Assembly: GCA_029261215.1 (NCBI GenBank)
Contig: JAJDBT010000118.1
Coordinates: forward strand, 9,121-73,120
Reading direction: 5' to 3'
Origin: Nitrospirota bacterium
GTDB taxonomy: Bacteria; Nitrospirota; Nitrospiria; SBBL01; JAADHI01
Length of the DNA stretch: 64,000 nucleotides
Part shown: one piece after another, positions 7,186 to 59,340 of the stretch
How the letters are laid out: each line of letters begins with the position of its first letter
Position numbering within the stretch: the first letter of the stretch is position 1
The notes under the pieces: generated by a model
Databases searched by the model: none
Told to the model about the DNA's origin: nothing
Seen by the model: only the letters and a program-made list of their open reading frames with translations
Program-made: the position numbers and the translations under genes

Positions 7186-7191
7186 CTCCTT

Positions 7192-26418: not shown

Positions 26419-26436
26419 ATCATTTAAAGTATGATC

Positions 26437-28028: not shown

Positions 28029-28474
28029 TTCTCGGGGTCCTTTTTGTCCTTTTCAAGCATGGCTTTTAATTCGGCCTCGGAAACCAATTGGTCATTCACA
28101 TAGGCCATCCCTTTGAGTTTCCAGTATGGCGGACGTTGATGTAATACTTCCACTTCAATTCTCAGTTGATCACCCGGCAGCACAGGCTTTCTGAATTTGG
28201 CTTTATCAATGCCCAAAAAATAGACCAGCTGGCCCTCTCTGCCCTTGGCTGATTTCACCGCAAGTACGCCGCCAATCTGAGCCATCGCTTCGATAATCAA
28301 GACCCCCGGCATAATCGGGTGACCTGGAAAATGCCCTTGAAAAAAAGGCTCATTCATCGACACATTCTTCAACCCGACCATCTTTTTCCCCGGCTCAAAA
28401 GAAAGTATGCGATCCACCAGTAAAAAAGGATAACGATGGGGTAAAATTGCCATGATTTCCTGGATGTCCATCAT
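28025..28474 (-). CDS. fabZ: 3-hydroxyacyl-ACP dehydratase
   Basis: Carries motifs [13 protein letters not shown] and [12 protein letters not shown]. Confidence 0.95.
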
Positions 28475-29529: not shown

Positions 29530-29562
29530 TTAGACCTTTCTATCCAAAGAACCTTAAGAGCC

Positions 29563-30090
29563 TTATTTTTTGGTCATCGTATTCAGCTGACTGACGACTT
29601 TATCTGTGATATCGCCACTTTCTTCCGAATACAACACCGGGCCGCCTTCCTTATTTTTATCCAGCACAAGGGTATAGCCTTCTTTTTTGGCCGTTTCCTG
29701 AATCGCTTTTTCTAAAGTCTGAAAAAAAGTCCGGTTTGTTTCAACTTTTTTGTCCTGAACTTCTTTGTTCATTGCCCTTGCTTTTTGCTGATAATCCGTG
29801 AACTTCTTCTGCATTTCATCCTGCTTCATCTTCGAGGCCTCCGGAGAAAGCAGGGCCGCTTGTTTTCTGAGGTCTTCTTCCATTTGTCGAAGTTCTTTTT
29901 CTTCGATGTCGATAATTTTTTGACGGCTCTCGACATATTCCTGAACGTTCGCCTGCACGCGTTTACCTTCATCCGAGATCTCAAATACTTTTTGCGCATC
30001 CACAAATCCAACCTTGAAAGAAGCGGCCGTGACCGACGATACGAACACTAATGACACCATCAAAACAAAATAAAAACTGACTCTTTTCAT
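29563..30090 (-). CDS. skp: Periplasmic chaperone Skp (OmpH family)
   Basis: It has a signal peptide and a K/E/Q-rich coiled-coil body. It lies between bamA and lpxD. Confidence 0.88.
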   Translation of the reverse strand: MKRVSFYFVLMVSLVFVSSVTAASFKVGFVDAQKVFEISDEGKRVQANVQEYVESRQKIIDIEEKELRQMEEDLRKQAALLSPEASKMKQDEMQKKFTDYQQKARAMNKEVQDKKVETNRTFFQTLEKAIQETAKKEGYTLVLDKNKEGGPVLYSEESGDITDKVVSQLNTMTKK

Positions 30091-30129
30091 CTTTTCTCCT
30101 TCGTTGTTTATCCGATAAAATAATTTAGC

Positions 30130-35700: not shown

Positions 35701-36146
35701 GATATCACACGAGTGGGCTGGGGGGAACCGGTTAGAGTGCTAGCGTTTTCATAAATTTGAATGGCATTTTGGGCTGTATTGGCCACATAAAGCGTGTCAT
35801 TGCTTCGATCCAAAAAGACCCCGGTCGGACCCGTGATCGCATTCGGGAACTGACGGTCAGGAAAGACATTTCCATCTGGTACGCGGGGAACGATTTTTGA
35901 CTGGGCCGTTTTTGAGTTGGAAGATAAAGGGTCAAAAGCAAGGAGCCGACCATCGCCCCCATTGGCCACATAGAGCGAGCCTCCAAAGGTAAAGGTCTCC
36001 TGAGCGGCTGTTTTCGGAGCAGGTCCTGCTGTTTCACCACAAGCAGAGAGAATAAAATAAAAGAGAATGAGCAAACAGAGAGGAAACCTCCGTTTGAACC
36101 CTTCGATGAGAACGTCTACTGTTTCAATCCTGCTTCTCAATATCAT
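32742..36146 (-). CDS. Giant beta-propeller-repeat lipoprotein (YVTN/NHL-like blades, about 18 repeats), unknown function
   Basis: Lipobox ILSAC is present. About 18 copies of a blade core occur, such as DTLYVAN..N.I.IY and DRLYVSN.... A linker motif (Y/F)ENAS(T/S)L...P.R.I.G recurs. Seven short Cys pairs sit in the loops. Confidence 0.8.
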   Translation of the reverse strand: MILRSRIETVDVLIEGFKRRFPLCLLILFYFILSACGETAGPAPKTAAQETFTFGGSLYVANGGDGRLLAFDPLSSNSKTAQSKIVPRVPDGNVFPDRQFPNAITGPTGVFLDRSNDTLYVANTAQNAIQIYENASTLTGSPQPTRVISGSKTLMDEPYAVAFDGVTERLFVANRGGNTITAFHSSCISAAPLDGDILPCTLLVGDQTQLDFPRALAIDPSKNLLYISNAGSDSILVYDNANALGASPASCINDFTSCNIPPTRIISPHEDLDKSVSKLELPFGIALDRVNDRLYVVNTGLNQPAVLIYEDASTLNGGVVPERVITGLNSGLTVPAGIAVDETRGRVIVVNNNSPNNVNSSTGNNVDSPSVVVFNEIDMVCPLLASPSSCELSPDSRIGGDVSPETGTTLSSPVGLAFDPTRDTAYIANTGANNIFIYVVEENTAPLKENFGAATTTLLNVPSGVFYDLALDRLYISNAGNGMTPSLYPITVYNHVSDESFNVSKAPDWTIGGSSFNMPRGVYIDKTRNLMLVADGSSVGSPAKYGLIAYNLNTSFSNGVTPVPFPINNADGPSGSETSKVDLQAPGALNRGTDGLSPGGPTAMTVDEARGEVYVADKNNNSVVVFKLPPPAGPWLKEREITGLKKPYGVFIDTQRDILYVTNNGVETGVSSDNTVYVYENASTKGDGGTACFAAPCLPDRIISTEGFADPQKKLKAPISPYVDLATNRLFLIKSASHVEGSVTYPEAVLTFQEASTLGDATSACLDRTGVCADVDLTKVKKLSGDKTRLAFWQDAGTTPLRRYTGAVFLSKHKNNDTLYVAQSAQKNCVSGCSGGALLVYGIEGRVPPSKIWSDGSGGFVSPEALALDPIKNVLYVANQGSNTLSILEKADKVDVTLDATTGKRDLNNLQLNRPAGLVIDSALDRLYVSNSESISCGTLPCNAVLVFNDASTLLDGQTPSETISDPDLISPRGLAVDGLRKRLYIASHGNNAVLVFSVEGAAARSLFLSGVQSGLDEPAGLALDSVRDILYVLNQGKTEVLVFENASSLSGNASPSRVITGRDGNGNNFMVKLSGIFVDAGKDILYVADRDANAVYIFPDASTATGQSPLKTLAGDKTGLQSPVAITVNTSSP

Positions 36147-40738: not shown

Positions 40739-43549
40739 TTGTCCAGCAATAAAACGCTACATTTCGCCGCGCTTCTGCTTGTAACCATCTTCCTTTCATC
40801 TTGCATTGACGATAAAACAGCCCCCTCGTCGGATGTCGCGGCCACAACCGTTGCGGTCTCAATCGAACCAAATCTAAGCACCACAGTGCCGAAAAGTGGA
40901 GCGATCGCATACACCGCTTCGGTCACTGGATCTGGCAATACCGCTGTAAAATGGAGTATCCAGGAAGGCGCCTCCGGCGGAAACATTACCAATAAAGGAT
41001 TGTATACGGCACCCGCAACAGTAGGCACATTTCATGTGATCGCCACCAGCCAGGCCGACCCCGGAAAAAGCGCCACGGCGACTGTGACCGTATCTTCCAT
41101 TCTAGATGCCAGCTTTGCCTCAAACGGCAGTATTTCGACGCCTTTTACAAGTATCGACATTATTAACAGCATTGCACAACAAGCCGACGGGAAAATTGTC
41201 GTCGGAGGATACTCACTCAACGGAACAGAAACGGATTTCGCACTGGCCCGTTATCTTAGCAACGGCATCCTCGATACTTCTTTCGGAACCAATGGCATTG
41301 TGGTGACTTCTCTGGGAGGAAGTACCGAAATCAAAGCAATCACCTTGCAGGATGACGGAAAAATCCTGGCGGGTGGGAACACCTCCAACACTGAAAACAG
41401 CAATTTTGTACTGGCCCGGTATTTGAAAAATGGGACACTTGATCCCGATTTTGGAAACAACCGTACTGGTTTCATTAAAACCAGCATTAATGTGGGGAAT
41501 GACAAGCTAAATGCCATCGCGCTTTTGCCAAACGGAAAGATCGTTGCAGGTGGATTTTCCGCCGTGACCACAACCAACGATATTGGCAGCGTGAGGAATA
41601 AATTTGCCCTGGTGCAATATCAATCCAACGGAACGCTTGATCCGACTTTCGACACCGACGGCATGCTCACCACCGCCATCGGAACAGGCAATGAAGAAAT
41701 TCTTGCTCTGACCATTGATTCTAACGGAAAAATTATCGCAGGAGGCTTCTCATCCAATGGCAGCAATAATGATTTTGCGCTTGCGCGCTACAACAGTGAT
41801 GGCAGCTTAGACACCAGTTTTGACGCCGATGGAAAACTCACCACGCCCATCGGAACAGGCAATGAACGCATCACCAGCTTGGCCATTGATTCTAGCGGAA
41901 AAATTGTCGCAGGAGGCTTTGCAGCAATTGGCGCAACGAACGATTTTGCGCTTGCGCGCTACGACAGTAATGGTAGCTTGGACACCACCTTTGACACCGA
42001 CGGAAAACTCACCACCGCCATCGGGACCAGCGACGAAGAAATCAGGGCTTTGGCTGTGCGTTCTAACGATAAAATCATTGCCGGGGGATTTGCTTCATTC
42101 TCAGGAAACAGAGACTTCGCACTCGTCGCATACAATGCCGATGGCAGTTTAGACACCAGCTTCGATACGGATGGCAAGCTGACCACCACAATTGGAACAG
42201 GAACCGATGAAATCAACACCCTGCTTCTCCAGCCGGATGACAAGATCGTCGTTGGCGGATTTTCCTTCGTCGGAACAAGTCCAGCCTTCGCCCTCGCAAG
42301 ATACACTGCTAACGGCAGCCTGGACACCACCTTCCACACGGACGGAAAACTAAGCACATTGATTGGGGGCGGGGCAGATGAAATTAATGCGGTGGCCCTT
42401 CAAGCCGACAATAAAATCATCGCCGCCGGATTTACCTTCGGGACCAACAATATCAGAAACAAGGATTTTGCATTGACCCGTTACAATAGCGACGGCACCC
42501 TCGACACGACCTTTGGAAACAACGGGAAAGTCACCACGGCAATCGGGAGTACCGCCAGCAATGGGCATGACATTATCAATGATATTTCCATTCAAAGCGT
42601 CGATGAAAAAATCGTCGCCGCCGGGTCTTATCGCAATGGGAGTAATGGGGACGATTTTGTTCTGGCAAGATACACCGTCAACGGCACCCTTGACACCAGC
42701 TTCGGCACAGGCGGCCTTGTCAAAACCACGATCAACACTAACGATGAAACAATCAATGCCCTTGTCCTGCAGCCAGACGGCAAAATTGTTGCGGCGGGAA
42801 CCTCCTTTACAACCGGAACCGCACCGAACCATCACGACTTTACCCTCGCACGTTACAACACCAATGGCACGCTCGACACCAGCTTTGGCGCAAGCGGCAT
42901 ACAAAAAACGCCGATTGACAATGGGAGCTTTGCGGAAGCGGTCGTACTTCAGTCCGACGGAAAAATTGTCGTGGCGGGCTCCTCAGAAAGCAATACCGGC
43001 TTTGACTTTGCGCTCGCTCGATATAACCTTGATGGCACGATTGATACGAGCTTTGGTATTGACGGAATCGTCAGAACCCCCGTCAGCACAGGGCATGATT
43101 TTGCAAACGCGATAAAAATTCAAAGCGACGGAATGATCGTCGTTTCGGGAACAAGCTTTTCAGGGGCATCGCCCGAACAATTCGCTGTCGTGCGTTATAA
43201 CAGTGATGGAAGTCTCGACAGCAGTTTTGGCACAGGCGGAATGGTCACAACAGCAATTGCCAACGGGGCACAGCCCTTTGCCCTTGTCATTCAAGATGGG
43301 AAAATTGTGCTGGGCGGCTTTTCGATCAGCATACTCAACAACCGTGATTTCACGCTCGTCCGCTATCTATCGGATGGCACATTGGACCCCGCATTTGGTG
43401 TAAATGGCATTGAGATCTCGCCCTTTAGCCCTGCGATAGACGAGATCCACGACCTTATCCTCTCGGATGGCCAGATTCTCGCCGCCGGGTTTTCCGTCAA
43501 CGGCTATGGGGAGAATACGGATTTCCATTTAGCCCGTTACGCGCCTTAA
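40739..43549 (+). CDS. Delta-60-repeat beta-propeller lipoprotein with an N-terminal Ig-like domain, unknown function
   Basis: Lipobox LSSC is present and an Ig-like segment ends ...GKSATATVTV. About 14 units of roughly 57 aa follow, of the form DFALARY..DGSLDTSFDTDGKLTT.IGTG.DEI.AL...DGKIV.GGF. Confidence 0.82.
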   Translation: MSSNKTLHFAALLLVTIFLSSCIDDKTAPSSDVAATTVAVSIEPNLSTTVPKSGAIAYTASVTGSGNTAVKWSIQEGASGGNITNKGLYTAPATVGTFHVIATSQADPGKSATATVTVSSILDASFASNGSISTPFTSIDIINSIAQQADGKIVVGGYSLNGTETDFALARYLSNGILDTSFGTNGIVVTSLGGSTEIKAITLQDDGKILAGGNTSNTENSNFVLARYLKNGTLDPDFGNNRTGFIKTSINVGNDKLNAIALLPNGKIVAGGFSAVTTTNDIGSVRNKFALVQYQSNGTLDPTFDTDGMLTTAIGTGNEEILALTIDSNGKIIAGGFSSNGSNNDFALARYNSDGSLDTSFDADGKLTTPIGTGNERITSLAIDSSGKIVAGGFAAIGATNDFALARYDSNGSLDTTFDTDGKLTTAIGTSDEEIRALAVRSNDKIIAGGFASFSGNRDFALVAYNADGSLDTSFDTDGKLTTTIGTGTDEINTLLLQPDDKIVVGGFSFVGTSPAFALARYTANGSLDTTFHTDGKLSTLIGGGADEINAVALQADNKIIAAGFTFGTNNIRNKDFALTRYNSDGTLDTTFGNNGKVTTAIGSTASNGHDIINDISIQSVDEKIVAAGSYRNGSNGDDFVLARYTVNGTLDTSFGTGGLVKTTINTNDETINALVLQPDGKIVAAGTSFTTGTAPNHHDFTLARYNTNGTLDTSFGASGIQKTPIDNGSFAEAVVLQSDGKIVVAGSSESNTGFDFALARYNLDGTIDTSFGIDGIVRTPVSTGHDFANAIKIQSDGMIVVSGTSFSGASPEQFAVVRYNSDGSLDSSFGTGGMVTTAIANGAQPFALVIQDGKIVLGGFSISILNNRDFTLVRYLSDGTLDPAFGVNGIEISPFSPAIDEIHDLILSDGQILAAGFSVNGYGENTDFHLARYAP
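41600..42370 (+). repeat. In-frame 171-nt tandem DNA repeats inside the delta-60-repeat gene (approximate bounds)
   Basis: The same phase marker (ggaacaggcaatgaa / gggaccagcgacgaa / ggaacaggaaccgat) occurs at 41681, 41852, 42023 and 42194, exactly 171 nt apart. The run gattttgcgcttgcgcgctac is identical in adjacent units. Confidence 0.8.
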
Positions 43550-46038: not shown

Positions 46039-47391
46039 CTAATACTCATAAAAGCGAACCTGATTTCGACCTTCGTGCTTGGCTTGATATAAGGCTTTGT
46101 CCGCGTATTGAATAAACTCATTGGGCGTGATCGCCCCTTTTGCAGTCCCTGGCAAGGTACATACCCCAAAACTACAAGTTACTTTGGCGTGATCCGGGAG
46201 AAGTTCAAGCTCCGACACCACTTTTCTTAAACGTTCCGCCGATGCGACAGCCTCCCCTTGCCCTGTTTCAGACATCAGAATCACAAACTCTTCACCCCCG
46301 AAGCGTGATAAGACGTCATAGGGCCTTAGAATCGATTCAAAATATTTTGACAATTCCTGAAGCACATGATCACCCATCACATGTCCATAGAAGTCGTTAA
46401 CCTGCTTAAACTTATCGATATCAAATAAAATGAGGGACAAGGGGCGATTTAAACGTAAGGCCCTTTCTATTTCAGAGCCAAGAACTTTATTTAAATATCG
46501 TCGATTATAAAGCCCGGTTAATGGGTCCCGAATCGAGAGATCCTTGATTTGCTCAAAAGCCTGTTGTTTCTGGATCGCAATCACAGCCTGGGTGGCCAGC
46601 ATCCTCAAACTATCCGTCAATGTCGGCGCGAAACGACTCGGTTTAAAATCATCACTGTATAAAATACCGACAGGCCCCTTGTCCGAGATCAATGGAATCG
46701 CAATAAGCGAACGAATCCCCTCCTTTAAAATGATGGGATTGTTGAATGTCGGAAAATCAACGAGATCTGGCACAAGAATGGGGTCTTTATTGGAAAGAAT
46801 ATGTTCGGTTAAACCCCCAGGCCGGACGGGATACACTGCATTTTGATAAAATTCAGAAGAAAGCCCCTTTGTCGCCACCAAAAAAAGTTTATTATTGTGC
46901 TTGTTGTAGACAGAAAGCGACCCGGCTGGCATGCCCGTAATCCGCATGCCGCCCTCAACAATCGCTTGAAAAATTTCATCAGGCGTTTCGGAACGGGAAA
47001 GCATGAGACTAATATCGAGCAAAACCTGGTTTTCCAGCAGCTTTTTCTTTATCCCCAGTTCCCGATCTTCGAGCTCCTGAATCACATCCCACAGCACATG
47101 GGCGACTTCACCGGTCGCTACATCAAATCGATTACCTGAAATTTGAACCAGTTGACTGCGAACCTCAGGATTGTCCGTTAAATCAAAAACAAGGTCGATC
47201 TCCATTTCTCCTAAAAAAGGAATCGGGTCTTCAAGGTATACGGGGAGATTGGCCTCTCTGGCCAGAGCAATGGCCGGGGCATCAGGGTTCAAATCGGCTA
47301 CGCCGACAACCTGAAACCAGTCAAACTGTAAAAGGCGGCTTAACACCGCCTTTCCACCATTTCCTGCCCCGATAATAAAGACCTGAACCAT
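46039..47391 (-). CDS. Diguanylate cyclase with an N-terminal Rossmann-like domain and a central GAF-like domain
   Basis: It has GxGxxG (FIIGAGNGG) and a GGDEF domain. The GGDEF domain has active site GGEEF and an I-site RPYD five residues upstream. The maximal ORF reaches TTG 47436; I prefer ATG 47391 by analogy with the kinase at 15150. Confidence 0.85.
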   Translation of the reverse strand: MVQVFIIGAGNGGKAVLSRLLQFDWFQVVGVADLNPDAPAIALAREANLPVYLEDPIPFLGEMEIDLVFDLTDNPEVRSQLVQISGNRFDVATGEVAHVLWDVIQELEDRELGIKKKLLENQVLLDISLMLSRSETPDEIFQAIVEGGMRITGMPAGSLSVYNKHNNKLFLVATKGLSSEFYQNAVYPVRPGGLTEHILSNKDPILVPDLVDFPTFNNPIILKEGIRSLIAIPLISDKGPVGILYSDDFKPSRFAPTLTDSLRMLATQAVIAIQKQQAFEQIKDLSIRDPLTGLYNRRYLNKVLGSEIERALRLNRPLSLILFDIDKFKQVNDFYGHVMGDHVLQELSKYFESILRPYDVLSRFGGEEFVILMSETGQGEAVASAERLRKVVSELELLPDHAKVTCSFGVCTLPGTAKGAITPNEFIQYADKALYQAKHEGRNQVRFYEY

Positions 47392-47459
47392 AAATTTTAG
47401 TGTAACGCCATCCGATGCCTTGTCAAGTACGCGCAAAGTATCTGAATCAGCACATTGTA

Positions 47460-49294: not shown

Positions 49295-49636
49295 ATGCAG
49301 GAACAGAGAGAAAACCCACGAAGTTCTTTTCATTTAAGAACAGACGTATTGCTTAATGAAGGGAAGGAACACATCAGCCTTTTGAGAGCCAATATCGGCT
49401 TTGGCGGCATCGGAGGCTATACGCGGGATTTGGTCAAGGCAGGAAGCGATGCCCTGGTTCAAATTCATTTTGTCCAGCGTGAAGGCGGGGAAAGCATTGA
49501 ATCCGCCCAGGGACAAATCATCTGGCAAAAACAGGATGGCAACTTCACTGCGCTTGGCATTGGTTTTTCAGAACTAAAATCCGAGCGGCACCCGCAACTG
49601 ATCTCCTACCTGAGATACGCAGAACAATTCGACTAA
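49295..49636 (+). CDS. Stand-alone PilZ-domain protein (putative c-di-GMP receptor)
   Basis: 113 aa. An RxxxR motif (RENPR) lies at the N-terminus and a D/NxSxxG-like motif (NIGFGG) about 30 aa later. The third position of the second motif deviates from the consensus. Confidence 0.6.
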   Translation: MQEQRENPRSSFHLRTDVLLNEGKEHISLLRANIGFGGIGGYTRDLVKAGSDALVQIHFVQREGGESIESAQGQIIWQKQDGNFTALGIGFSELKSERHPQLISYLRYAEQFD

Positions 49637-49666: not shown

Positions 49667-50134
49667 TTAAGACACTTGCATATCCAAAACAGTAAAAAAG
49701 ATCACAAGCAGTCCCGCCAATAAAACCACCAAATTTAAAAGCATCGAAAAGCCATGAAACCGCCGAAAGCGCTTTGATTTTTCTGCTTCATCAGAGCAAT
49801 CCGTTGAGGCCCTGAGATCGTTCTTGAGCTGTCTCACTTTTGGCACAACAATAAATGCGGCATAAAATGTCGAGAGCATCATAAAACTTAATGTGATAAG
49901 CCGCGCCCTGTGCCATTCAAACACGACAGATGACATGGCCAATGTCCCCAAACTTAAAACACTGCACAGACATCCCACTTGATAGTATTTTGGAAATATT
50001 TTAGCCACAATTTCGCCCGCAGTTTCTTTGGGAAAGGCTTTAAAAATCGACGGTGCGGCAATCAATGAAAAAAACACCATGGACCCGACCCAAACCGAGA
50101 GAGACAGGAGATAGAGAAACTGCAGTAAAATCAT
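49667..50134 (-). CDS. DUF4149 (TMEM205-like) four-TM membrane protein
   Basis: The N-terminus reads LLSLSVWVGSMVFFSLIAAPSIFKAF...AGEIVAKIFPKYY, typical of DUF4149. It starts 15 nt downstream of the FG-GAP gene stop. Confidence 0.6.
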   Translation of the reverse strand: MILLQFLYLLSLSVWVGSMVFFSLIAAPSIFKAFPKETAGEIVAKIFPKYYQVGCLCSVLSLGTLAMSSVVFEWHRARLITLSFMMLSTFYAAFIVVPKVRQLKNDLRASTDCSDEAEKSKRFRRFHGFSMLLNLVVLLAGLLVIFFTVLDMQVS

Positions 50135-50149: not shown

Positions 50150-53100
50150 TCAAGGTCCTTCAAGTCGGCTAGAATTTGTTGGTTTCGTCAAAACGGGTTT
50201 ACCGGAAGGGATTCCATCGCAAGCGTTTCCAATACCGTCTCGATCATCATCTTCCTGTCCGAAATTTGCCACAAAAGGACAGTTATCCACATCATCGTTA
50301 AAGCCATCGCCGTCTCCATCCAAAATCGAGAGCTCACAGGCATCCCCTATGTCGTTTCCATTCACATCAACTTGATCCGGGTTTGCAATATTGGCACAAT
50401 TGTCTATTTGATCCGGAACCCCGTCCCCATCACTGTCTCCCGGTAGATCCGCATCCGGCCCCAGCATGCGCACCACATAGGTGCTGTTCGGATCAAGACG
50501 TACAGCATATTGGGCCCCAACTTCATTAGAAATACACTTAGGCCCCGGAGGACAAAACTCTTCCGCTCTTGAACCCAAAAATGAAATTTCAGCTTGTCCC
50601 ACCTTCGTACACGTTTCTCCCACCACCCGGCATGTCACTCCGACAGCCGTGACATTTCCCGGCATACCTGTATCGACATTTAAATGAGTATAAAACAGAC
50701 TGTTAAAAGCGGTAATATTCACCAGGGAATTGCCCGTGAGCGGTGTCACTGAGGGAGAAACCGCATTTCGTGTCCCTTTGAGGATGTTTAAACCAAAGGG
50801 CAGATCAAAAATAATAAAACGCCCACTATTTCCCGTTTGATTCAGCAAGGGATCCACGTCCAGTGCATCGTTCAAATACCGCACAACGCCGACCGGGTTT
50901 CCATCCAGATCACGAGGGTCAACAAGCACATCCTTGACCGAACTGCGTTGACTTAACAGAATCGAAAGGTTGTCAGAACCCGAGTTAAGCGCGATCAGGT
51001 CATTATGCCCGTCCTGATTCAAATCACTCATTAGCAACGCTTTTGGCGCACTGCCCACGGTAAAAGATTTTGAAGGGAGATCAAATCGGCCATCGCCTTT
51101 TCCTGCCACCACAGAAAGGGTGCCGCTTCCTTCATTCGCAATTACGATATCAAGGGTCCCGTCTTGCTCAAAATCAAGTACGAGCAGTGCGCGTGGCATC
51201 GTTCCGGGTGTCAGGGGACAATTTTCATTGATGGGGTCTGTCGCAGGGTTCGGGCCGGGGAAACAATCAACCTTGTCAAAACGATCATTCCCATCCCCTT
51301 TAAAAATAGACAAATCATCAGAACCCGCGTTAAGCACAACAATATCAAGAAGACCATCCGCGTTGAAGTCCCCAACCCCGATGTCGCTCGGATTGTCTCC
51401 CGCGACAAGTGCGGTATTGATTGATCCGTCCCCACTCCACAAAAGGGAGACAACTCCCGAATTGGTCGCCACCGCGAGATCCAGAATATTGTCATCATTA
51501 AAATCCCCTGTCGCAATCCCTGTCGGCGAACCCGCGACCGCACAAGGGGTCGGGCAGGGTGAGTTATTGACAGAGAATCCTCCTCTCCCGTCACCCACCA
51601 GGACCGAAAGGTTGTTTGAGCCCTCATTCGCAATCACAAGGTCAAGCCGCCCATCCCGGTTTAAATCAGCCACCTTGATATGCCCAGGCGCCGTACCCAG
51701 ACCCGCTGTGATGGGCGTAAGAGTCGAAAACGCGCCATTCCCTGTCCCCCACAAACGTGAAATAGAGTTTGATCCCCGGTTGACAACGACGAGATCCGTG
51801 AAACCATCCTGATTAAAATCTCCCGCAGCAATCGCCGCCGGATCGTTTTCAACACCAATTGAAGCGGGCGTCGCCGGAATAAACCCGCCATTCGCCTGAC
51901 CTAAAAAAATCTGCACCTGATCCGGCGCGTGCACAACGGCCACATCAGGATAAACATCCTCATTAAAAAAACCTGCCGTCATGGCCTTCACACCTGAACC
52001 TGTCGAAAGAGTACTGACCGCATCGACAATCGTCTGCGCAACCACCTCACCCGCCACAAGGCCCTTTTGTAAATCAAGACTCACGCCCGCCTGAACCGCC
52101 AGCTGAGACAACTCTGGTTCCGATGTCACATAAAATTGAGCGTCCGTCTGTGGGTTCAATCCGGTTTTGAGTTGATCATTATATGTATCGATGAACCCAT
52201 TTTTAACCACCTTGGTTAAAAATGAACCATTTGCAGGAATCGGCACCCCGGGTGAAACCGTCAAGGATTCGGATGTAAAACGACTTCGCTCTCCCAATAA
52301 TGAAAGCGCTGCACCCGAAACCGGATGATTGTGCAGATCACTCAGATTGCCTCTTACAGGCACATTCAAGGGAACATGGTTCAGCGCAATATCCACCTTG
52401 TGCACACTGTCCGGAAAAACACGGATAATTTGATTGCCAGAATCATCCGAACCGGCAGTCTTGAGCATGACCAGTCCGGGAGGAATGTTTCGGATTAAAA
52501 ACAGACCATTATCTGTTGTTTCAGTTAATGCAAAATCCAGAACCCCGGCGGCATTAAAATAGCTGATATTCCCCACAGGATTTCCGCTTGTCATCACATG
52601 ACCATTCTGATCGATCATCTGCGTCGTCAAAAGCTGTACTTCGTTGTTTCTGCCTCCCAGGCGTCGGTTAATCACGCGCCCCAGAATCGCCCCAGAGCCA
52701 TTTGTCGCACCAATGAATCCGTTTGAGACCAAGGTCAGATCGAGGTTAAGATCCTGGCCTCCGGTATTCACCGACTGATAGGTTGTCACATGTGTGCCGC
52801 CTGACTTTTCAAGGCGAATCAAAATCGTATTATTTGCGAGCAAAGGGGCGATTGCTTCCGAATCTGTTCCGGCTGCAATCGCATATGTCCCTGTCGCAGC
52901 ATCTGAATTAGCGAAGATCTCTGAAAGCCCCATCACACGCATTGAGACACCGCCCACAGGGGTCAACCCATCTTCCTCTAAAACAGTGCCTGACAGGCCA
53001 ACGGTATACCATGTCGGAGGCAATGCCGAGACGGAAGCGGGGTCTACCCGAAGCGCCGTTTCCATCCGCATGTTCAGGAGGGTCAGGCTATTCGGAAACA

Positions 53101-54382
53101 CGGAGGCAAGCGCATTACCCGTTGACTTCACCCTTAAGCCCGAGCCGTCGGTCGCATCAACCACTGCGTAAGCCTTTAAATAAACATCACCCGGAGGCAG
53201 GTTCAGAATCAGAAAGATCCCTTCCGTCGAGGTTTGCACCTGACATCCCGAAATACTCGCATTGTTGCAGACCGGAAAATCGCTGCCCGTGGGAAAATAA
53301 AAGGTCTCGCCAATGGGATTTCCTTCAGCATCCGTTGCGATGACCACAGCCCCGTCTTTTCTGCCTACATTTCCTTCAATCCCGACGGCCTCGGAAATAT
53401 TACCCAATAACATGCCCCGGCCGGAAATCAAGGAAGCTCCAGCAGCCAGAACCAACTGCTGGACATCTTGATTGGCAACACTCGAAAAATCGATTGTGAT
53501 CTCCGGAGTTACGGCGTTCGCTGTTAAGTCGGCCAGGTCGGTAAAAACAGTCTGATAGGTATCTATGTGTCCTGCCGCAGCGACCTTGGAGAGAAATACA
53601 CTTTCGGAACCCAGCCCTGAAGCACTGAAAGCACCGCGTCCCGTCGTCGTAATCGAACCCGCCAGTCCGGGAAAACTGATTTGGCTTGGGCCAACACCGG
53701 TTTCTTTATCCCTTTCCCGCACCACCCCGGCAATATTAGAGGTCGGGAGGGCGACAGGAAAAACAGACATATCGAGCAAGGAGACACTTCCCGCATAAAT
53801 GTTCACCCGTCCGTTTCCTCTGCCGCCTTGCACCGCCTTGACAAAGTGCTGTCCGGGCGGCACATTCAAAGCGGTGAAACTCCCTGAAACTGCGGTTCCC
53901 GTGGTATTAATAAATTCAGGGATGCCGTTAATCCCGTTAAACAAAATAGATGCGACCAATTCGCCATCCGCATTGGTCACTCCGCCTTTGACGGAACCAT
54001 CTATGTTCCTAATAATGCGTCCGGCTTTATCTGTTCCGCCGATTGAAACACTGGGGAGCGGGCGACCGAGGCGGTCCACAACAACCCCACTCAACACTCC
54101 CAGATCTGCCGATTGCTCAGCAGTGCCAGGAACAGCGGTGATCAGGTTTTTAACATCCGCACCGGAAACAATTCGAAGATTACTTAATGTGCCCAGTATT
54201 TCGCTGGTGCCTGTTTTAAAATTGAATGTATAGGTTGGAACCAAAGGAACTTGAAAGCGGCCACCCGTTCGCTCTCCGACGGGGAAGGGGTCTGAGTTGC
54301 ATCCCTGAAAAATAAAGAGACCCCCCAACAGCGTTAAGATAAGTCCTTTAAAAAAAAGAGGGGTTTTCAAGTACTTCAACAT
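50150..54382 (-). CDS. Giant mosaic lipoprotein: CarboxypepD_reg-like beta-sandwich modules + seven FG-GAP/VCBS repeats + C-terminal thrombospondin type-3 (Ca-binding) repeats
   Basis: Lipobox FQGC is present. At least four modules end in the motif N(V/L/I)PPG...(L/V)K. Seven GDFN.DG..D(L/I)V..N.GS..LS(V/I) repeats span aa ~798-1146 (nt 50945-51991). TSP3 motifs DSDGDGVPDQIDNC..NPDQ.D and DGDGDGFNDDVDNCP span nt 50213-50440. Confidence 0.85.
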   Translation of the reverse strand: MLKYLKTPLFFKGLILTLLGGLFIFQGCNSDPFPVGERTGGRFQVPLVPTYTFNFKTGTSEILGTLSNLRIVSGADVKNLITAVPGTAEQSADLGVLSGVVVDRLGRPLPSVSIGGTDKAGRIIRNIDGSVKGGVTNADGELVASILFNGINGIPEFINTTGTAVSGSFTALNVPPGQHFVKAVQGGRGNGRVNIYAGSVSLLDMSVFPVALPTSNIAGVVRERDKETGVGPSQISFPGLAGSITTTGRGAFSASGLGSESVFLSKVAAAGHIDTYQTVFTDLADLTANAVTPEITIDFSSVANQDVQQLVLAAGASLISGRGMLLGNISEAVGIEGNVGRKDGAVVIATDAEGNPIGETFYFPTGSDFPVCNNASISGCQVQTSTEGIFLILNLPPGDVYLKAYAVVDATDGSGLRVKSTGNALASVFPNSLTLLNMRMETALRVDPASVSALPPTWYTVGLSGTVLEEDGLTPVGGVSMRVMGLSEIFANSDAATGTYAIAAGTDSEAIAPLLANNTILIRLEKSGGTHVTTYQSVNTGGQDLNLDLTLVSNGFIGATNGSGAILGRVINRRLGGRNNEVQLLTTQMIDQNGHVMTSGNPVGNISYFNAAGVLDFALTETTDNGLFLIRNIPPGLVMLKTAGSDDSGNQIIRVFPDSVHKVDIALNHVPLNVPVRGNLSDLHNHPVSGAALSLLGERSRFTSESLTVSPGVPIPANGSFLTKVVKNGFIDTYNDQLKTGLNPQTDAQFYVTSEPELSQLAVQAGVSLDLQKGLVAGEVVAQTIVDAVSTLSTGSGVKAMTAGFFNEDVYPDVAVVHAPDQVQIFLGQANGGFIPATPASIGVENDPAAIAAGDFNQDGFTDLVVVNRGSNSISRLWGTGNGAFSTLTPITAGLGTAPGHIKVADLNRDGRLDLVIANEGSNNLSVLVGDGRGGFSVNNSPCPTPCAVAGSPTGIATGDFNDDNILDLAVATNSGVVSLLWSGDGSINTALVAGDNPSDIGVGDFNADGLLDIVVLNAGSDDLSIFKGDGNDRFDKVDCFPGPNPATDPINENCPLTPGTMPRALLVLDFEQDGTLDIVIANEGSGTLSVVAGKGDGRFDLPSKSFTVGSAPKALLMSDLNQDGHNDLIALNSGSDNLSILLSQRSSVKDVLVDPRDLDGNPVGVVRYLNDALDVDPLLNQTGNSGRFIIFDLPFGLNILKGTRNAVSPSVTPLTGNSLVNITAFNSLFYTHLNVDTGMPGNVTAVGVTCRVVGETCTKVGQAEISFLGSRAEEFCPPGPKCISNEVGAQYAVRLDPNSTYVVRMLGPDADLPGDSDGDGVPDQIDNCANIANPDQVDVNGNDIGDACELSILDGDGDGFNDDVDNCPFVANFGQEDDDRDGIGNACDGIPSGKPVLTKPTNSSRLEGP

Positions 54383-54494
54383 TTTTCACCTAAGAAATAA
54401 AATCTTACGATATTACCAACACGATTTTACAACACTGCTTTATCGAAATGCCAGTTTATCGGATAATCAGCCTCTTTATATCTCTATACGGCCC

Positions 54495-57400
54495 CTAAAA
54501 ACTGTAACTCAGTTCCAAATAAATACGGTTGCTGTCTTTAAAAAAGCCGATAAAATCAAACTGCCCAACCTCTTCCCCGCGGTCACCCACAAAAATATCA
54601 CTGCCAAAAATAGCTTTCACATTGTCGCTCAGCCTCGTCTCAAGCGCTGGCCGGAAGAGAAAATCCGCTTCGTTAATAAAATAGAGGGACAGGATTCTAA
54701 GTACGAGTTCTTCATTCATGAATGTTTTTCTCATAAAATGAGCGGCAACGGTATCAATGCGATCCTGTAATATTGTGGCGTTCCAGCCCGGAATGTACTG
54801 TTGAATAAACTGCAGGGACATATCCGCACCCAAAAGGGAAAAATCAAGACCGACGGCATATTTCATATAATCGCGCTGTAGTTCACCCAGCAGCGGGGAT
54901 TGATCTTCACTCAGATCAGCGCTGGCGGCAGCAGCCGCATCGATATCCAGTAATGTCCCAAAGAGTTTTCCAAAAACATAGGCATATTCGGCATTCAGCA
55001 CAACACGGCCAAAACTTTTTGAAAGAGTCGTGCCTACGGTGGTAATACGGTGCATCCTTGGCTCAAATTGGACTTCTGGCGGGTCAGAAAATGGATTTAG
55101 GCCCGCGCCGAGGATCGACCGGAAACTCGCAGGAAAATCATCCCATTGATAAAAAACAGTCATTCCGACTTCCCAGTCTTTTATCGTCTGAACGAGCCGT
55201 CCGGCAATTTCTGTATTTTGAAAAGCATTCACATTCAAGTTCAAGGAATCATCCAGAAAAGCTTCTGGGGCAATAAACCCCGGCAGAATCTGAAACTGCT
55301 CAAATTCTGAACCGGACGGGGCCGGTTTATGCGGGACGGCTTCGGTAATCCAAATGAGCTCCAATCGCGCATCCCCTGGGAAAAAGTCTGCCTTCAGCAT
55401 CATCAAGGGAATAAAGCGATCTTCAACTTCTCGTAAAATAAATTCACCAAAATCAAAAGGGTTAATCTCGTCCGTCACCCGCGCACCAGGGACAACCCCC
55501 CAGCGCACGATCTGCTTTCCGATACGAAGATCCATATTTTTAAAATGTGCATCAATATAAAATTCTCTCAAATCAACACTATGCCGATTCTGCTCCACCG
55601 CACGTGAATTTTCGACATCCACGCCAGCGACTTCTTCTCTTGTCGGCGATTGCGGAAGCGTCGTCAGGATTGTATTGTCAAAGCGCCTTGGACTAATCGT
55701 GTCCACATCGACAAAATCATAAATCGCATCATAAAATGTGCGCCCACGGCCGGTAATTTGATATCTTGGAGAAAATGCATACCGACCGTTTAAACGAAGT
55801 AATGTCAGCGCTTTTGTAAAAGTGACCGGACTGTTAATCCGGTAAGCCACTTCATGTTTTAGGGTACCGTCCCATTGGAAATCCTGGAGTAACAAAGGAG
55901 AGTCCTCGGTTGCAAGGTCGGCCTCATCACCCCAATTCAGCCATTTTTCGAATATAGTTTGGTCTGAACTCCCTTTCCCAAAATGAAACCGGAGCGCCAT
56001 TCGGGCTTCAAAACCATCCAGATTTATTCTCAAAATCCGAGGCCGTGTCCCCTCACGCACTTGATCATTGTCACAGGTAATGGTGGTCAGGGTTTGCCCT
56101 CTTGTCTGGTTGTCTCCTAATTGAAAACAGGGATTGACCGATACGCCAGGCTGGCCCGCCGTAGAACCCCGAAAGCCGGATGGAAATTCCCGCTCGACCC
56201 TGAGTTTTGTCACCGTTCCCCAAAGATAGTTGACGCCTAAACCCACTGAAAACCAGGGACGGATAAAAACTTCCCCTCCCAGTCCGGCCCGCGTTGTAAA
56301 ACTCCGACCTCTTGCTTCAAAAGACCCCAGAGAAACAAAAGGCCCGCCGGTTGGATTTTCTTCTGCGCGAATCAGAGCATCCGCTGTTAAATTAACAAAT
56401 GAGCCGCCCAATAGTCCGAGATCCATATAAATACGACCGATTTCAGGGTCGTTCAAGAGGGCATACCGCCATGAAAGGAAAACTTGATTGATGCTCAGGT
56501 TATATCGGGCGCTTCTTGGCAGCAGGCCAGATCGTGTGGGTGAGAATTGAAAAGGGATCAAATCAGTTCTGACGGTGTTGCTTTGCCATTCCGAAAGGCT
56601 CAATACCAGACCATTTCGCTCATTGATGCTCCACTCTGCTTCTATTCCGAGTGTTTCACTGCCTTTAATTTCTTCCATCGCCAAATTTCTTACTTCTGAT
56701 ACAAAACCTGGATTTGAAGGGAGAATATGATTTGGGTCTTGAGCAATGACTGTTTTTGGGTCACTCAACACCTGATTTAGATTTTCCAGAGAAGGTTTGT
56801 AATACCCCGTAGTGAGGCTGACGCTCAGTTGCGTCGCGCCCGACTTCCATTTGGGATAAAGAAATTCCAGATCTGTCGCCGCCGTCAATCCAAAGGTCAC
56901 GATGTCCTGATCATAGGCGCCCAAAGATTGAACTTGGCCACTATTAATATCGACTAAATCAATGTCCGAAGCCACGGGAAGGTTTGAAAGGTTTTTGTTT
57001 CGCGCAAAATTGGCAAAAAAAGTCACTCCAGGCTGAAGGTCATAAGAAAAACCTGCCGTTGCGCTGTACAGCTGATTCTGACGCTTGCGGCGAATTCCTC
57101 GGCTTAGGGCAAATGAATCGGCATTTAAATAATCGGACACGGCATAACTTGCGCCCAGTGTCAATGTTAAGTCGGGACCCAGGTCACGGATGTAATTTCC
57201 AGAGAGGGTTTGCGTGATTCTTTCCTGATCGTTCGCGAGCACATGACTCAGCCCATAGGTATATGATCCCTGAACCCGGCCTAAATCAAAGCCAAACAGA
57301 GAAAGATTCTGCGCCAGAATGCCACTGCCCGTTGCCGTTTTGGTACTAAAAATCGGGTTACTATAGATCTCGATATCCTGATAACTCAGACGGAGTGTAA

Positions 57401-59231
57401 CCGAGGAGGGGAAAACAGCCTGGCGTGATACTTCGGCCGTGTAGCCATTGATCCGAATAAACTTCCCTTTACTTAGGGTATCGCCATACATCGTCCCCAT
57501 TCTAAAATTGTAACCCAATACCACACTATAGGATGAAATAAACTGCGCATATAAAAGACTTGCGCCAGTATTGACAAAATAAAGCTGAGAATGGTGAAGC
57601 AGGCGCGTATTGAAATTAATCTGAAAAGGAATTTTGAGCAGTTCCTTTTTTTTCAAATAATAGGTTAATGCAAGATTGGATTCAGAGCTTACTTCACTGA
57701 TCGGCACCTGACTCCGCGTACTATTGCTATCAAACGAGACGGCCATGTCGGAATAGCTGACATTGAACTTTTTTTCATATAAATCAACGCGACCCTGTGC
57801 AATTTTTTTCATCCTTGCTTCTCTGTCTTTAGACAAGTCGAGTACCGCGTGATACGCATCCAATGCGTTTTGAATCTCATCTTTTTTTTCATACAGAATG
57901 CCAAGCCGCATATGTGCCCCGGCTTCCAATGGCCTTACAGTCACCGCATCTTTGTAGATTAAAATGGCCTTATCAAGGTCGTTCATCTTTTCATAAATTT
58001 CACCCAGCAGGAAATAACTGAGATAATGATTCCGATCAATTTCAATGGCCGCTTTGAGCTTTTGCTCCGATTCCTTCAAATCGCCTTCTTCCAGGGCGAT
58101 CTGGCCCAGATGGTAGTGGACAAGCACCTGTTTCGGTAAATACGTAAGCACAACAAGAAATGCTGCCCGCGCACCTTCAAAATCTTTCCTGGAAAGTAAT
58201 CGGCCTCCTTCTCTCAAAAGTGATTGAACCAGAATTCCGATTTCCGGGGTTTCCCCTATTTGGGATAGCTTTTGCCTCGCAATCATCACTTCTTGTTGCT
58301 TTGGATCGCTAACTTCCTGTAACAACCCCTGATATTCGCTAATCGCCTTGTCAATTTCACCTTTATTTTCATAGGTTTGTCCTAGAAATAATCGTGCTGA
58401 AAATAAATCGGGCTTTTGCTCAAGCGCTTTTCTTAATCTATCAACCGCTTCATCCAATTGTCCTTTCTGAATCGCAATGATCCCCAGACTAAAAAGCGCC
58501 TTTGGATTTTCGGGGTCGAGAATTAATCCTTTTTGAAACAGATCTGTTGCCTCTGCAATCAAACCTTGTTTTAAGTGCGCTGTCCCATTTTGGAAGAAAG
58601 CTTCTGCATGTTTTTTCAGAAGAGCAATTTGGGACTCTGCCTGCTTTTTTTCAGGGCCCTCACCTTTAGACGCAACGGCAGCACGATATCGCTCAATGGC
58701 TTTAAATATTTCCCCCTGACTTTGGAACAATAAGCCCAAATAATAGTGGCCCCCCGGATAGTCAGGGTTGACATCAATCGCACGTTCAAAGGCAGCGATG
58801 GCTTTTTTATTTTCTTTCGTTGCGGCATAAGCCTGCCCGAGTAAAAGGTGTCCTGCTAATAAACTCTCGTCTATTTCAACAGCCTGCCTAAGCACCTCTA
58901 TTGCCCGATCAATCTCACCTTTTCGAGTATAGATAATCCCAAGCAGAAGATAGGAGGGTGTATGCCTCGGGTTTACCAACAAAACGTCCTGAAAAGCAGA
59001 GATAGCCTGGCTCAATTTTCCCTCACCCATCAAGGCCCTTCCTTCCTCAAAGATGGCCCGCTCAGTTAGGTTAGGGCTTGTTTGGGCCTGTACAGGAGAG
59101 GGAATAAAGAAGAATAATCGTCCGACTAAAAAGAGAATACCCACGAAAGCAATGAACGCTTTCTTTGGGACAAGATCCTTAAAGATCGGTTTTTGAGGTC
59201 GCACCTTCACTAAAAAATCAAGTCTCCACAA
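54495..59231 (-). CDS. Giant outer-membrane protein: signal peptide + ~415-aa TPR array + up to three tandem beta-barrel-like modules (the C-terminal one DUF1302-like)
   Basis: TPR repeats span aa 55-470. After that, the pattern is amphipathic beta strands. Segments end ...GLTAATDLEF (aa 790), ...FEARMALRFHF (aa 1084) and ...RIYLELSYSF (aa 1578). The block LREFYIDAHFKNMDLRIGKQIVRWG resembles DUF1302. The TTG start is uncertain. Confidence 0.8.
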   Translation of the reverse strand: MWRLDFLVKVRPQKPIFKDLVPKKAFIAFVGILFLVGRLFFFIPSPVQAQTSPNLTERAIFEEGRALMGEGKLSQAISAFQDVLLVNPRHTPSYLLLGIIYTRKGEIDRAIEVLRQAVEIDESLLAGHLLLGQAYAATKENKKAIAAFERAIDVNPDYPGGHYYLGLLFQSQGEIFKAIERYRAAVASKGEGPEKKQAESQIALLKKHAEAFFQNGTAHLKQGLIAEATDLFQKGLILDPENPKALFSLGIIAIQKGQLDEAVDRLRKALEQKPDLFSARLFLGQTYENKGEIDKAISEYQGLLQEVSDPKQQEVMIARQKLSQIGETPEIGILVQSLLREGGRLLSRKDFEGARAAFLVVLTYLPKQVLVHYHLGQIALEEGDLKESEQKLKAAIEIDRNHYLSYFLLGEIYEKMNDLDKAILIYKDAVTVRPLEAGAHMRLGILYEKKDEIQNALDAYHAVLDLSKDREARMKKIAQGRVDLYEKKFNVSYSDMAVSFDSNSTRSQVPISEVSSESNLALTYYLKKKELLKIPFQINFNTRLLHHSQLYFVNTGASLLYAQFISSYSVVLGYNFRMGTMYGDTLSKGKFIRINGYTAEVSRQAVFPSSVTLRLSYQDIEIYSNPIFSTKTATGSGILAQNLSLFGFDLGRVQGSYTYGLSHVLANDQERITQTLSGNYIRDLGPDLTLTLGASYAVSDYLNADSFALSRGIRRKRQNQLYSATAGFSYDLQPGVTFFANFARNKNLSNLPVASDIDLVDINSGQVQSLGAYDQDIVTFGLTAATDLEFLYPKWKSGATQLSVSLTTGYYKPSLENLNQVLSDPKTVIAQDPNHILPSNPGFVSEVRNLAMEEIKGSETLGIEAEWSINERNGLVLSLSEWQSNTVRTDLIPFQFSPTRSGLLPRSARYNLSINQVFLSWRYALLNDPEIGRIYMDLGLLGGSFVNLTADALIRAEENPTGGPFVSLGSFEARGRSFTTRAGLGGEVFIRPWFSVGLGVNYLWGTVTKLRVEREFPSGFRGSTAGQPGVSVNPCFQLGDNQTRGQTLTTITCDNDQVREGTRPRILRINLDGFEARMALRFHFGKGSSDQTIFEKWLNWGDEADLATEDSPLLLQDFQWDGTLKHEVAYRINSPVTFTKALTLLRLNGRYAFSPRYQITGRGRTFYDAIYDFVDVDTISPRRFDNTILTTLPQSPTREEVAGVDVENSRAVEQNRHSVDLREFYIDAHFKNMDLRIGKQIVRWGVVPGARVTDEINPFDFGEFILREVEDRFIPLMMLKADFFPGDARLELIWITEAVPHKPAPSGSEFEQFQILPGFIAPEAFLDDSLNLNVNAFQNTEIAGRLVQTIKDWEVGMTVFYQWDDFPASFRSILGAGLNPFSDPPEVQFEPRMHRITTVGTTLSKSFGRVVLNAEYAYVFGKLFGTLLDIDAAAAASADLSEDQSPLLGELQRDYMKYAVGLDFSLLGADMSLQFIQQYIPGWNATILQDRIDTVAAHFMRKTFMNEELVLRILSLYFINEADFLFRPALETRLSDNVKAIFGSDIFVGDRGEEVGQFDFIGFFKDSNRIYLELSYSF

Positions 59232-59271: not shown

Positions 59272-59303
59272 AAAAAAAAGGGGAAGACTTTTAAGTCTCC
59301 CCC
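59272..59303 (-). terminator. Rho-independent terminator after the 287-aa secreted-protein gene
   Basis: The minus strand reads GGGGGAGAC-TTAAAA-GTCTTCCCC followed by TTTTTTTT. This is a 9-bp stem with one G-U pair, starting 38 nt after the stop codon. Confidence 0.85.
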
Positions 59304-59340
59304 TTTAAAATAGCTTAATTTCGCTTTTTTTACGATTTTC

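Follow-up and report, generated by a model that had tools for sequence, protein, structure and literature searches.

A Nitrospirota lipoprotein with an FG-GAP β-propeller is linked to genes for TPR and DUF1302 outer-membrane proteins

Introduction

The α chains of integrins carry a seven-bladed FG-GAP β-propeller with loops of the form D-x-[DN]-x-D-G-x-x-D, followed directly by β-sandwich domains and held in the membrane by a C-terminal transmembrane helix. CRTAC1 (ASPIC/UnbV) belongs to the same propeller family, and the VCBS supercluster reportedly takes in the integrins. Bacterial propeller proteins of the FG-GAP/VCBS type include Bap1 and RbmC of Vibrio cholerae, which are adhesive and matrix-organising; their propellers are eight-bladed, they bear β-prism lectin domains and they are secreted in soluble form. 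Here we describe the gene for a 1410-residue lipoprotein with an FG-GAP propeller, located on the reverse strand of a 64,000-nt stretch of DNA from a Nitrospirota bacterium (GenBank assembly GCA_029261215.1, contig JAJDBT010000118.1, positions 9,121 to 73,120 of the forward strand; the whole stretch is called the window below), and its constant association with genes for tetratricopeptide repeat (TPR) and DUF1302 barrel proteins.

Several outer-membrane systems bring a barrel together with a lipoprotein. In Slam (type XI secretion), an outer-membrane protein with N-terminal TPRs and a DUF560 barrel is encoded beside a lipoprotein gene, and the cargo ends in an eight-strand barrel domain. The SusC/SusD pairs use a TonB-dependent barrel. 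In the β-barrel assembly machinery (BAM), the propeller lipoprotein BamB and the TPR lipoprotein BamD serve the BamA barrel. DUF1302 is a family without a solved structure that is predicted to form an 18-strand AlgE/Occ-like barrel and that works with lipoprotein partners (bioRxiv 10.1101/072470; PMC13499233). Its proteobacterial genes show cofitness and co-localisation with those for DUF1329 (LolB-like), a BNR propeller protein and an RND exporter, a cluster for which a role in exporting an envelope component has been put forward (bioRxiv 10.1101/072470; PMC13499233).

The phylum in question, Nitrospirota, includes the main nitrite oxidisers, the comammox bacteria and the manganese-oxidising Candidatus (Ca.) Manganitrophus. 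Its members grow in tight aggregates or on mineral surfaces, and knowledge of their envelope machinery is scant.

Results and Discussion

The lipoprotein gene lies directly downstream of TPR and DUF1302 genes

The lipoprotein open reading frame (ORF) opens with an ATG codon, is preceded by an AGGUGA Shine-Dalgarno sequence and runs for 1410 codons (ORF list and translation; Table 1). Public data hold an identical protein (P0001). There are also 12 full-length orthologues with 41-68% identity, one of which bears the database name 'FG-GAP-like repeat-containing protein [Nitrospiria bacterium]'.

Immediately upstream of the lipoprotein gene, in the same orientation, is a gene for a 1578-residue protein with about nine TPRs, a β-rich middle and a DUF1302 region (Pfam; PF06980, 48-53 bits; cut-off 23.2). 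The TPR region also matches TPR_Slam (PF24575, 46 bits), which is one of many overlapping TPR matches. A first-pass annotation of the window, made from the sequence by itself, had proposed that the two genes are co-transcribed across a 112-nt gap, and both the length of the gap and the link are borne out here. On this strand the gap contains no terminator-like hairpin, no promoter-like site and no significant RNA structure. A strong terminator-like hairpin, consisting of a 13-bp stem and a T run, is found upstream of the TPR/DUF1302 gene, and this hairpin is likely to mark the 5′ limit of the transcription unit. Because the gap has neither a terminator nor a promoter and the hairpin lies upstream of the TPR gene, the lipoprotein and TPR/DUF1302 genes look like one transcription unit.

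The same arrangement was seen in every locus compared. All 13 independent loci (13/13), with identities down to ∼30%, have TPR and DUF1302 sequences directly upstream of the lipoprotein gene and on its strand. In L001/L002, L003, L004, L005 and L012 they form a single fused gene, as in the window. At greater evolutionary distance (26-34% identity) two genes take the place of the fused one, encoding a TPR protein of 817-1054 residues and a DUF1302 protein of 475-539 residues, both immediately upstream and in the same orientation; this is the case in L013, L015 (Ca. Manganitrophus noduliformans, split genes at 5139-13837), L016, L017, L018 and L019. The distance from the DUF1302 gene to the lipoprotein gene is −23 to +8 nt in L015-L019, stop-start overlaps included. 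L013 was left out of this range as its lipoprotein ORF runs off the end of the contig. L012 and L017 belong to the same metagenome-assembled genome (MAG; GCA_029261165.1), which thus holds paralogous copies of the module, one fused and one split.

The split loci also show how the fused partner is built. The separate DUF1302 proteins have signal peptides of their own, end in ...Y-S/T/G-F and align to residues ∼1110-1578 of the fused protein with 41-45% identity (BLAST). With the exception of L018, the separate TPR proteins align to residues ∼55-783 (BLAST) and have an aromatic C-terminal residue, which suggests that they are TPR-plus-barrel outer-membrane proteins. Judged from these alignments, the 1578-residue protein appears to be fused from two outer-membrane proteins, each of which has its own gene in most lineages. 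Internal relics of barrel ends are visible within it ('...TDLEF' near residue 790 and '...ALRFHF' near residue 1083), and an extra β-rich segment of ∼300 residues (790-1083) is absent from the split versions. Two or three barrel segments in a single chain would be out of the ordinary.

The family is confined to one phylum. The N-terminal 767 residues of the lipoprotein were searched with HMMER against 1.84 billion representative proteins (E ≤ 1e-3), giving only 68 matches, 32 of them at E ≤ 1e-30 and most between 1226 and 1433 residues long. When one genome per species was scanned, the only relatives came from Nitrospirota, Nitrospiria and Nitrospira MAGs. All named members of the family are Nitrospirota, and they include Ca. 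Manganitrophus noduliformans and Ca. M. morganii.

Eight β-sandwich domains, one propeller and two TSP3 repeats

The lipoprotein has the architecture (A-B)×3, propeller, A-B, thrombospondin type-3 (TSP3) repeats, where A and B are two interleaved types of β-sandwich module, eight domains in total. The first-pass annotation had counted at least four homologous modules. Four A modules are indeed mutually homologous (96-99.5% probability in hhalign profile-profile comparisons of sub-alignments), but the B type interleaved with them had been missed. Modules B1-B3 are likewise homologous to one another (97-99%), and two homologous linkers with a helix were also detected. The weakest domain call is B4, for which hhalign gave 69-84% and the predicted local distance difference test score (pLDDT) was ∼50.

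Structures were predicted with AlphaFold2 (AF2) for the two halves of the protein, residues 29-790 and 771-1410, the former with a 14-sequence alignment. The model of the first half is all-β (mean pLDDT 80.8, predicted template modelling score 0.76). In Foldseek searches the stalk matched the transthyretin-like domain of carboxypeptidase D (5aq0_B, template modelling score (TM) 0.76). Its matches are tandem immunoglobulin (Ig)/CnaB/transthyretin-like proteins, among them Bacillus anthracis TIE (1.7e-11), and further include Gram-positive pilins, cohesin scaffoldins, S-layer proteins and teneurin; no catalytic fold was present among the matches of the 29-790 model. The stalk had initially been described as carrying a CarboxypepD_reg-like signature. 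This holds for the fold and for the family, since the HMM matches 12 of 14 orthologues (best 2.7e-19) and the majority of the distant relatives (see below). It does not hold for this particular copy, which scores 18.8 bits with PF13620 against a gathering cut-off of 32.3. The sub-threshold match spans residues 130-197, within A1, whose model is all-β with a pLDDT of 80-88. With phmmer, neither the N-terminal region of the lipoprotein nor the barrel region gave a match in the PDB.

Seven FG-GAP repeats follow the first three A-B pairs, as had been proposed. Their anchors are at residues 805, 855, 906, 960, 1005, 1070 and 1120, with a spacing of 45-65 residues. The region scores 147.7 bits with FG-GAP_3 (PF13517; cut-off 26.9, E 1.5e-43) and 55.9 bits with FG-GAP (PF01839; cut-off 22.1, E 3.6e-15). 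In the model of residues 771-1410 the propeller has ∼28 strands at a pLDDT of ∼90, compared with ∼80 for A4 and only ∼50 for B4 and the TSP3 region. Foldseek aligned the propeller with the LGI1 EPTP domain (TM 0.78) and the BBS1 propeller, which are seven-bladed (TM 0.75-0.78), and also with other BBS proteins, CRTAC1 (9etn, 1.3e-12) and integrins αV, α5 and αIIb. Together, the repeat count, the strands and the fold matches indicate that the modelled repeats make up one closed propeller.

The strict calcium-loop motif D-x-N-x-D-G-x-x-D is present in repeats 2, 3, 5 and 7. Repeat 6 has glutamate at the third position (D-x-E-x-D-G-x-x-D, here DFEQDGTLD), repeat 4 carries the variant D-x-N-x-D-N-x-x-D, and repeat 1 is degenerate. 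Across the wide family the aspartates of these predicted calcium loops hardly vary, and the residues conserved there are glycines, the loop aspartates and core aromatics.

Two TSP3 clusters had also been recognized at the C-terminus. Their units are complete at residues 1316-1350 and 1355-1389, and TSP_3 scores 42.6 bits over two stretches (Pfam; cut-off 25, 4.6e-11). The family profile matches COMP (7e-40) and thrombospondin-2 (3e-35). Comparison with the FG-GAP and TSP3 models, which the first-pass annotation had put forward as a check on its domain reading, therefore places both kinds of repeat above their cut-offs. The 14 cysteines other than the lipid anchor can be read from the sequence as seven local pairs, which fits an oxidising extracytoplasmic compartment.

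The same annotation had allowed for an unrecognised catalytic domain. None was found in the 1410-residue protein by HMM scans, AF2 structure prediction or Foldseek fold search, and its full length is accounted for by binding-type modules (hhalign, AF2). Hits to Glyco_hydro_30C, BBS1 and a T9SS M6-like inactivated protease were rejected as partial overlaps with the FG-GAP/TSP3 regions that fall far under their cut-offs, and a hit to the MtsC equivalog (55.7 bits against a cut-off of 350 in the Pfam/NCBIfam scan) was rejected as a partial overlap with the FG-GAP or TSP3 repeats. By itself the protein is an ordinary set of known adhesion-type modules, each belonging to a known family.

The wider family retains most of this layout. 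Among 34 distant relatives, 30 match FG-GAP_3 and 27 match CarboxypepD_reg (best 1.3e-105), with only five matching TSP_3, and an HMM scan of the 34 found no recurring catalytic family. P0016 is an example of a family member without TSP3. On the available sequences, the family core is the lipobox, tether, stalk, propeller and A-B pair, and TSP3 is the addition of one subclade.

A conserved tether follows the lipid anchor

The N-terminus of the lipoprotein has lysines at positions 3 and 6, an uncharged hydrophobic stretch and then I-F-Q-G-C28, which satisfies the usual lipobox rule. The FQGC lipobox had been noted at the outset and is well supported by conservation: Cys28 is invariant in the aligned relatives (14/14), and 35 of the 39 full-length proteins from the wider family carry a lipobox.

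The first 30 residues past Cys28 rank among the best-conserved stretches of the whole protein in the 14-sequence alignment, with conservation values of 0.78, 0.55 and 0.86 for successive 10-residue blocks and a protein mean of 0.53. A motif consisting of C-x4-F-P and then VP..T..F.F[KR]TG is retained across the wide family. The tether has a pLDDT of only 27-30 in the monomer AF2 model. High conservation without an autonomous fold is expected of a partner-binding segment or a sorting signal, and its conservation and predicted disorder make the tether a candidate for either. Extended peptides are ligands of TPR domains, and in other lipoprotein systems surface-sorting information resides in tether regions.

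Comparison with described systems

The lipoprotein resembles the integrin α chains in placing a β-sandwich domain right after a seven-bladed propeller with loops of the same kind, and the Foldseek alignments to αV, α5 and αIIb extend over ∼750 columns (propeller plus the next β-sandwich). However, it is anchored by an N-terminal lipid, has six extra β-sandwich domains before the propeller, and is only 11-13% identical to the integrins. No gene for a VWA or β-integrin-like partner is present in its neighbourhood. CRTAC1 is related through the propeller (profile match 2.5e-09) but has no lipid anchor, no A/B stalk and no TSP3. The thrombospondins and COMP share the sequence D-x-D-x-D-G-x-x-D-x-x-D-N-C plus a C-type half-repeat, with paired cysteines; in contrast, only two repeats occur here, and these in one subclade of the family. 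Neither the thrombospondin C-terminal lectin-like domain (TSP_C) nor EGF repeats were found in the lipoprotein by Pfam, and it has no coiled coil. Bap1 and RbmC, unlike the present protein, lack a DUF1302/TPR partner.

The proteobacterial DUF1302 cluster is similar in that the barrel is found beside LolA/LolB-like and β-propeller proteins. In the Nitrospirota loci, however, the propeller is of the FG-GAP type and sits on a giant lipoprotein, a TPR-barrel is added, and a LolA-like gene is seen in only three of the 13 loci. No RND gene was seen in any Nitrospirota module locus. With Slam the shared features are adjacency and the layout of TPRs plus a barrel, and Slam may serve as a working analogy for surface display. 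The barrels here are of neither the DUF560 nor the TonB-dependent type, so that both Slam and SusC/SusD differ, and the lipoprotein ends in TSP3 repeats without the C-terminal barrel domain of Slam cargo. The lipoprotein is not an integrin, a thrombospondin, a Slam cargo or a canonical DUF1302-cluster member; it lacks a defining feature of each.

What is new is the clade-specific arrangement (A-B)×3, propeller, A-B, with or without TSP3, together with the conserved tether and the unvarying association with a TPR-barrel and a DUF1302 barrel. No description of the architecture, the tether or the partnership was found in the searchable literature.

Possible roles of the module

The domain anatomy, the lipobox, the lack of a recognisable catalytic domain, the confinement to one phylum and the unvarying linkage of the genes are firm. 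The constant pairing with TPR and DUF1302 genes suggests a hitherto undescribed complex in the outer membrane. Our preferred reading, held tentatively, is that the protein is an outer-membrane lipoprotein without an enzymatic domain that acts as a calcium-dependent binder and as the third component of a Nitrospirota-specific TPR/DUF1302 outer-membrane module, and that it is most likely displayed at the surface.

In this scheme Cys28 would carry the lipid that anchors the protein in the outer membrane. The flexible tether would come next, followed by six β-sandwich domains, the propeller with its five or six calcium-loop motifs, two more β-sandwich domains and the two TSP3 repeats. Its partners would be the TPR-plus-barrel protein and the DUF1302 barrel, which are one fused protein in this genome. 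We infer that the three form a physical complex, in which the barrels would receive the lipoprotein via the tether and would then present it, or keep it in place, on the surface of the cell. The propeller and TSP3 repeats, presumably stabilised by bound calcium, would there bind an external ligand such as a matrix polymer, a mineral or a cell surface. By analogy, an adhesion or matrix-organising function is plausible.

Several points weigh against this reading. The canonical DUF1302 cluster also has a propeller protein (bioRxiv 10.1101/072470). Literature searches found no description of the family, and B4 and the TSP3 region are modelled at low confidence. Lol-sorted lipoproteins sit by default on the periplasmic face of the outer membrane, and BamB is an example of a propeller lipoprotein that serves its barrel from the periplasm.

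It is thus possible, if doubtful, that the lipoprotein faces the periplasm as a structural or scaffolding subunit of a TPR-barrel plus DUF1302 transport complex that moves an envelope component or a substrate, with BamB, BamD and BamA, or the BNR propeller protein of the proteobacterial DUF1302/DUF1329/RND cluster, as the model. The same TPR/DUF1302 gene linkage would be found in this case, and the default anchoring of Lol-sorted lipoproteins would place the protein on the required face. The β-propeller and LolA/LolB-like proteins of the canonical clusters, with their proposed export of an envelope component, also have a counterpart here, in that L003, L012 and the window each contain a LolA-like/DUF1329-related gene, situated in the window two genes upstream. 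The size of the protein (∼150 kDa) fits less well, and its CnaB/transthyretin-like stalk and TSP3 repeats are of types that are usually extracellular. Moreover, the loci contain no conserved RND exporter or other inner-membrane partner, and the propeller is FG-GAP and not BNR/Ycf48-like.

We consider it rather unlikely that the TPR-barrel, the DUF1302 barrel and the lipoprotein amount to a Nitrospirota-specific display or secretion machine, built from unrelated parts yet equivalent in function to Slam/type XI secretion or SusCD, with the disordered tether as the recognition or translocation signal. Were it true, the 'dark' DUF1302 family would have its first defined client.

That the lipoprotein is an autonomous adhesin or biofilm-matrix protein, and the barrel genes are envelope genes that only share its regulation and are tied to it neither physically nor mechanistically, seems improbable. 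V. cholerae provides a precedent in Bap1 and RbmC, whose FG-GAP/VCBS propellers belong to matrix adhesins, and calcium-binding TSP3 repeats and stalk domains suit adhesion. Linkage in 13 of 13 loci is nevertheless not easily explained by chance or co-regulation, and it survives divergence to ∼30% identity, gene fusion and fission, stop-start overlaps and the presence of two paralogous copies in one genome.

An enzyme (polysaccharide lyase, esterase or dehydratase) with its active site on the propeller or a β-sandwich is very unlikely: some FG-GAP-type propellers do occur in enzymes, and aldos-2-ulose dehydratase (4a7y) and a 'secreted esterase' (9oee/8w20) are among the structural and profile matches, but these are limited to the propeller scaffold, no catalytic family occurs in the lipoprotein or recurs in its distant relatives, and binding-type modules take up the whole length, with conservation centred on glycines, loop aspartates and core aromatics. 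Exopolysaccharide export through TPRs and an AlgE-like barrel, as in AlgK/AlgE, BcsC and PgaA, was not adopted as a model; no conserved synthase or glycosyltransferase genes adjoin the module in any locus.

On the preferred reading of a surface-displayed binder, the phylum-wide three-part module, sometimes present in two copies per genome, is a candidate for the surface presentation of a large calcium-dependent protein; transport across the outer membrane is the other role for which it is a candidate. The barrel family DUF1302, still uncharacterised but singled out as important in several studies, gains a very consistent new genomic partner.

Table 1. Features of the lipoprotein gene and its neighbours, with positions in the window
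Feature	Position	Strand	Basis
Lipoprotein gene, 1410 aa	50150..54382 (including stop codon)	(-)	ORF list and translation
Signal peptide and lipobox FQGC, aa 1-28; lipidated Cys28 predicted	54299..54382	(-)	Sequence; Cys28 invariance
N-terminal tether, aa 29-68, CNSDPFPVGE...VPLVPTYTFNFKTG; predicted disordered	54179..54298	(-)	Conservation blocks; pLDDT
Module A1, aa 92-212, ...ALNVPPGQHFVKA	53747..54109	(-)	hhalign against A2, A3, A4: 96-98.5% probability
Module B1, aa 213-285	53528..53746	(-)	hhalign against B2, B3: 98-99%; pLDDT 87-95
Module A2, aa 318-445, LILNLPPGDVYLKA; Cys372/Cys380	53048..53431	(-)	hhalign against A3: 99.5%; AF2 model
Module B2, aa 455-545	52748..53020	(-)	hhalign against B1: 98.9%, against B3: 97.2%
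Module A3, aa 556-668, LIRNIPPGLVMLKT; invariant DDSGN 646-650	52379..52717	(-)	hhalign; invariant columns
Module B3, aa 670-740	52163..52375	(-)	hhalign; pLDDT ∼90
Seven-bladed FG-GAP β-propeller (predicted), aa 796-1137; two inserted Cys pairs	50972..51997	(-)	Pfam; repeat anchors; AF2; Foldseek
Module A4, aa 1138-1232, IIFDLPFGLNILKG	50687..50971	(-)	hhalign against A1-A3: 96-99%; pLDDT ∼80
Module B4 (weakest call), aa 1236-1312; four conserved Cys	50447..50677	(-)	hhalign against B1-B3: only 69-84%
Two TSP3 repeats, aa 1313-1390; Cys1329/1349, Cys1368/1388	50213..50446	(-)	TSP_3 HMM; motifs
Intergenic gap, 112 nt, lipoprotein gene to TPR/DUF1302 gene	54383..54494	(-)	RNA fold z-score +0.9
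Partner gene, 1578 aa: TPR, β-rich region, DUF1302 outer-membrane barrel	54495..59231	(-)	TPR families; PF06980
Strong terminator-like hairpin, 13-bp stem and T run, upstream of TPR/DUF1302 gene	59277..59306	(-)	
DUF4149 membrane protein, 15 nt downstream of lipoprotein gene	49667..50134	(-)	PF13664, 1.9e-22
Secreted Thr/Ser/Gly/Asn-rich protein, 287 aa	59341..60204	(-)	Conserved upstream in fused-gene subclade
LolA-like/DUF1329-related periplasmic protein, 273 aa	60548..61369	(-)	PF17131, 2.8e-46; PF07044, 45.8 bits

Other genes at the module loci and in the window

The lipoprotein gene is followed by one for a DUF4149 protein. The first-pass annotation gave the intervening gap as 15 nt, which is exact, but the link it implied is peculiar to this genome: in L003 the DUF4149 gene is convergent, and the remaining loci lack it. 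DUF4149 was rejected as an operon partner on the ground that its synteny is not conserved, and perhaps shares a transcription unit with the lipoprotein gene in the window only.

Upstream of the fused TPR-DUF1302 gene is the gene for the 287-residue secreted protein, which has no Pfam family and no phmmer match in the PDB. Homologues with 36-61% identity occupy the same position in L001 (3999-4877), L003 (two copies, 1296-2123 and 2228-3073), L004 (1139-1990) and L005 (4034-4876). They are 275-292 residues long, have conserved cysteines and lie directly upstream of the fused gene. In L012 the same position is taken by a 287-residue ORF, also without a Pfam family, which matches in size and place only. 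The 287-residue protein could be a cargo or a fibre subunit of the module.

The LolA-like/DUF1329-related gene was not found in L001, L005 or the split loci. In the window its product has a signal of the signal peptidase I type, and in L003 its product is a lipoprotein.

In three split loci the module is followed by a gene for a protein of ∼436-456 residues (L015 14319-17442, L016 11898-13268, L017 12349-14681). It is annotated as OprB in L017, and the three are alike in size and position. Genes for a ZnuA-type metal ABC transporter come next in L015 and L017, which hints at a possible link of the module to metal or solute uptake.

The genome is rich in large repeat proteins. Two giant β-propeller proteins are encoded elsewhere in the window, one of 1134 residues with NHL/lactonase-like repeats (32742..36146, reverse strand) and one of 936 residues with 13 DUF5122 repeats (40739..43549, forward strand). 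Less than 4 kb downstream of the lipoprotein gene are a GAF-GGDEF diguanylate cyclase gene (46039..47436, reverse strand) and a gene for a small PilZ-domain protein (49295..49636, forward strand), and in L003 a PilZ gene is likewise found near the module. A connection of cyclic di-GMP to surface or biofilm functions is possible.

Finally, an envelope-biogenesis cluster at 17494..32520 (reverse strand) encodes a heptosyltransferase, WaaA, an MsbA-like ABC transporter, LpxB, LpxD, Skp and BamA. The host is therefore a diderm, lipopolysaccharide-containing bacterium, and the window is ordinary chromosome.

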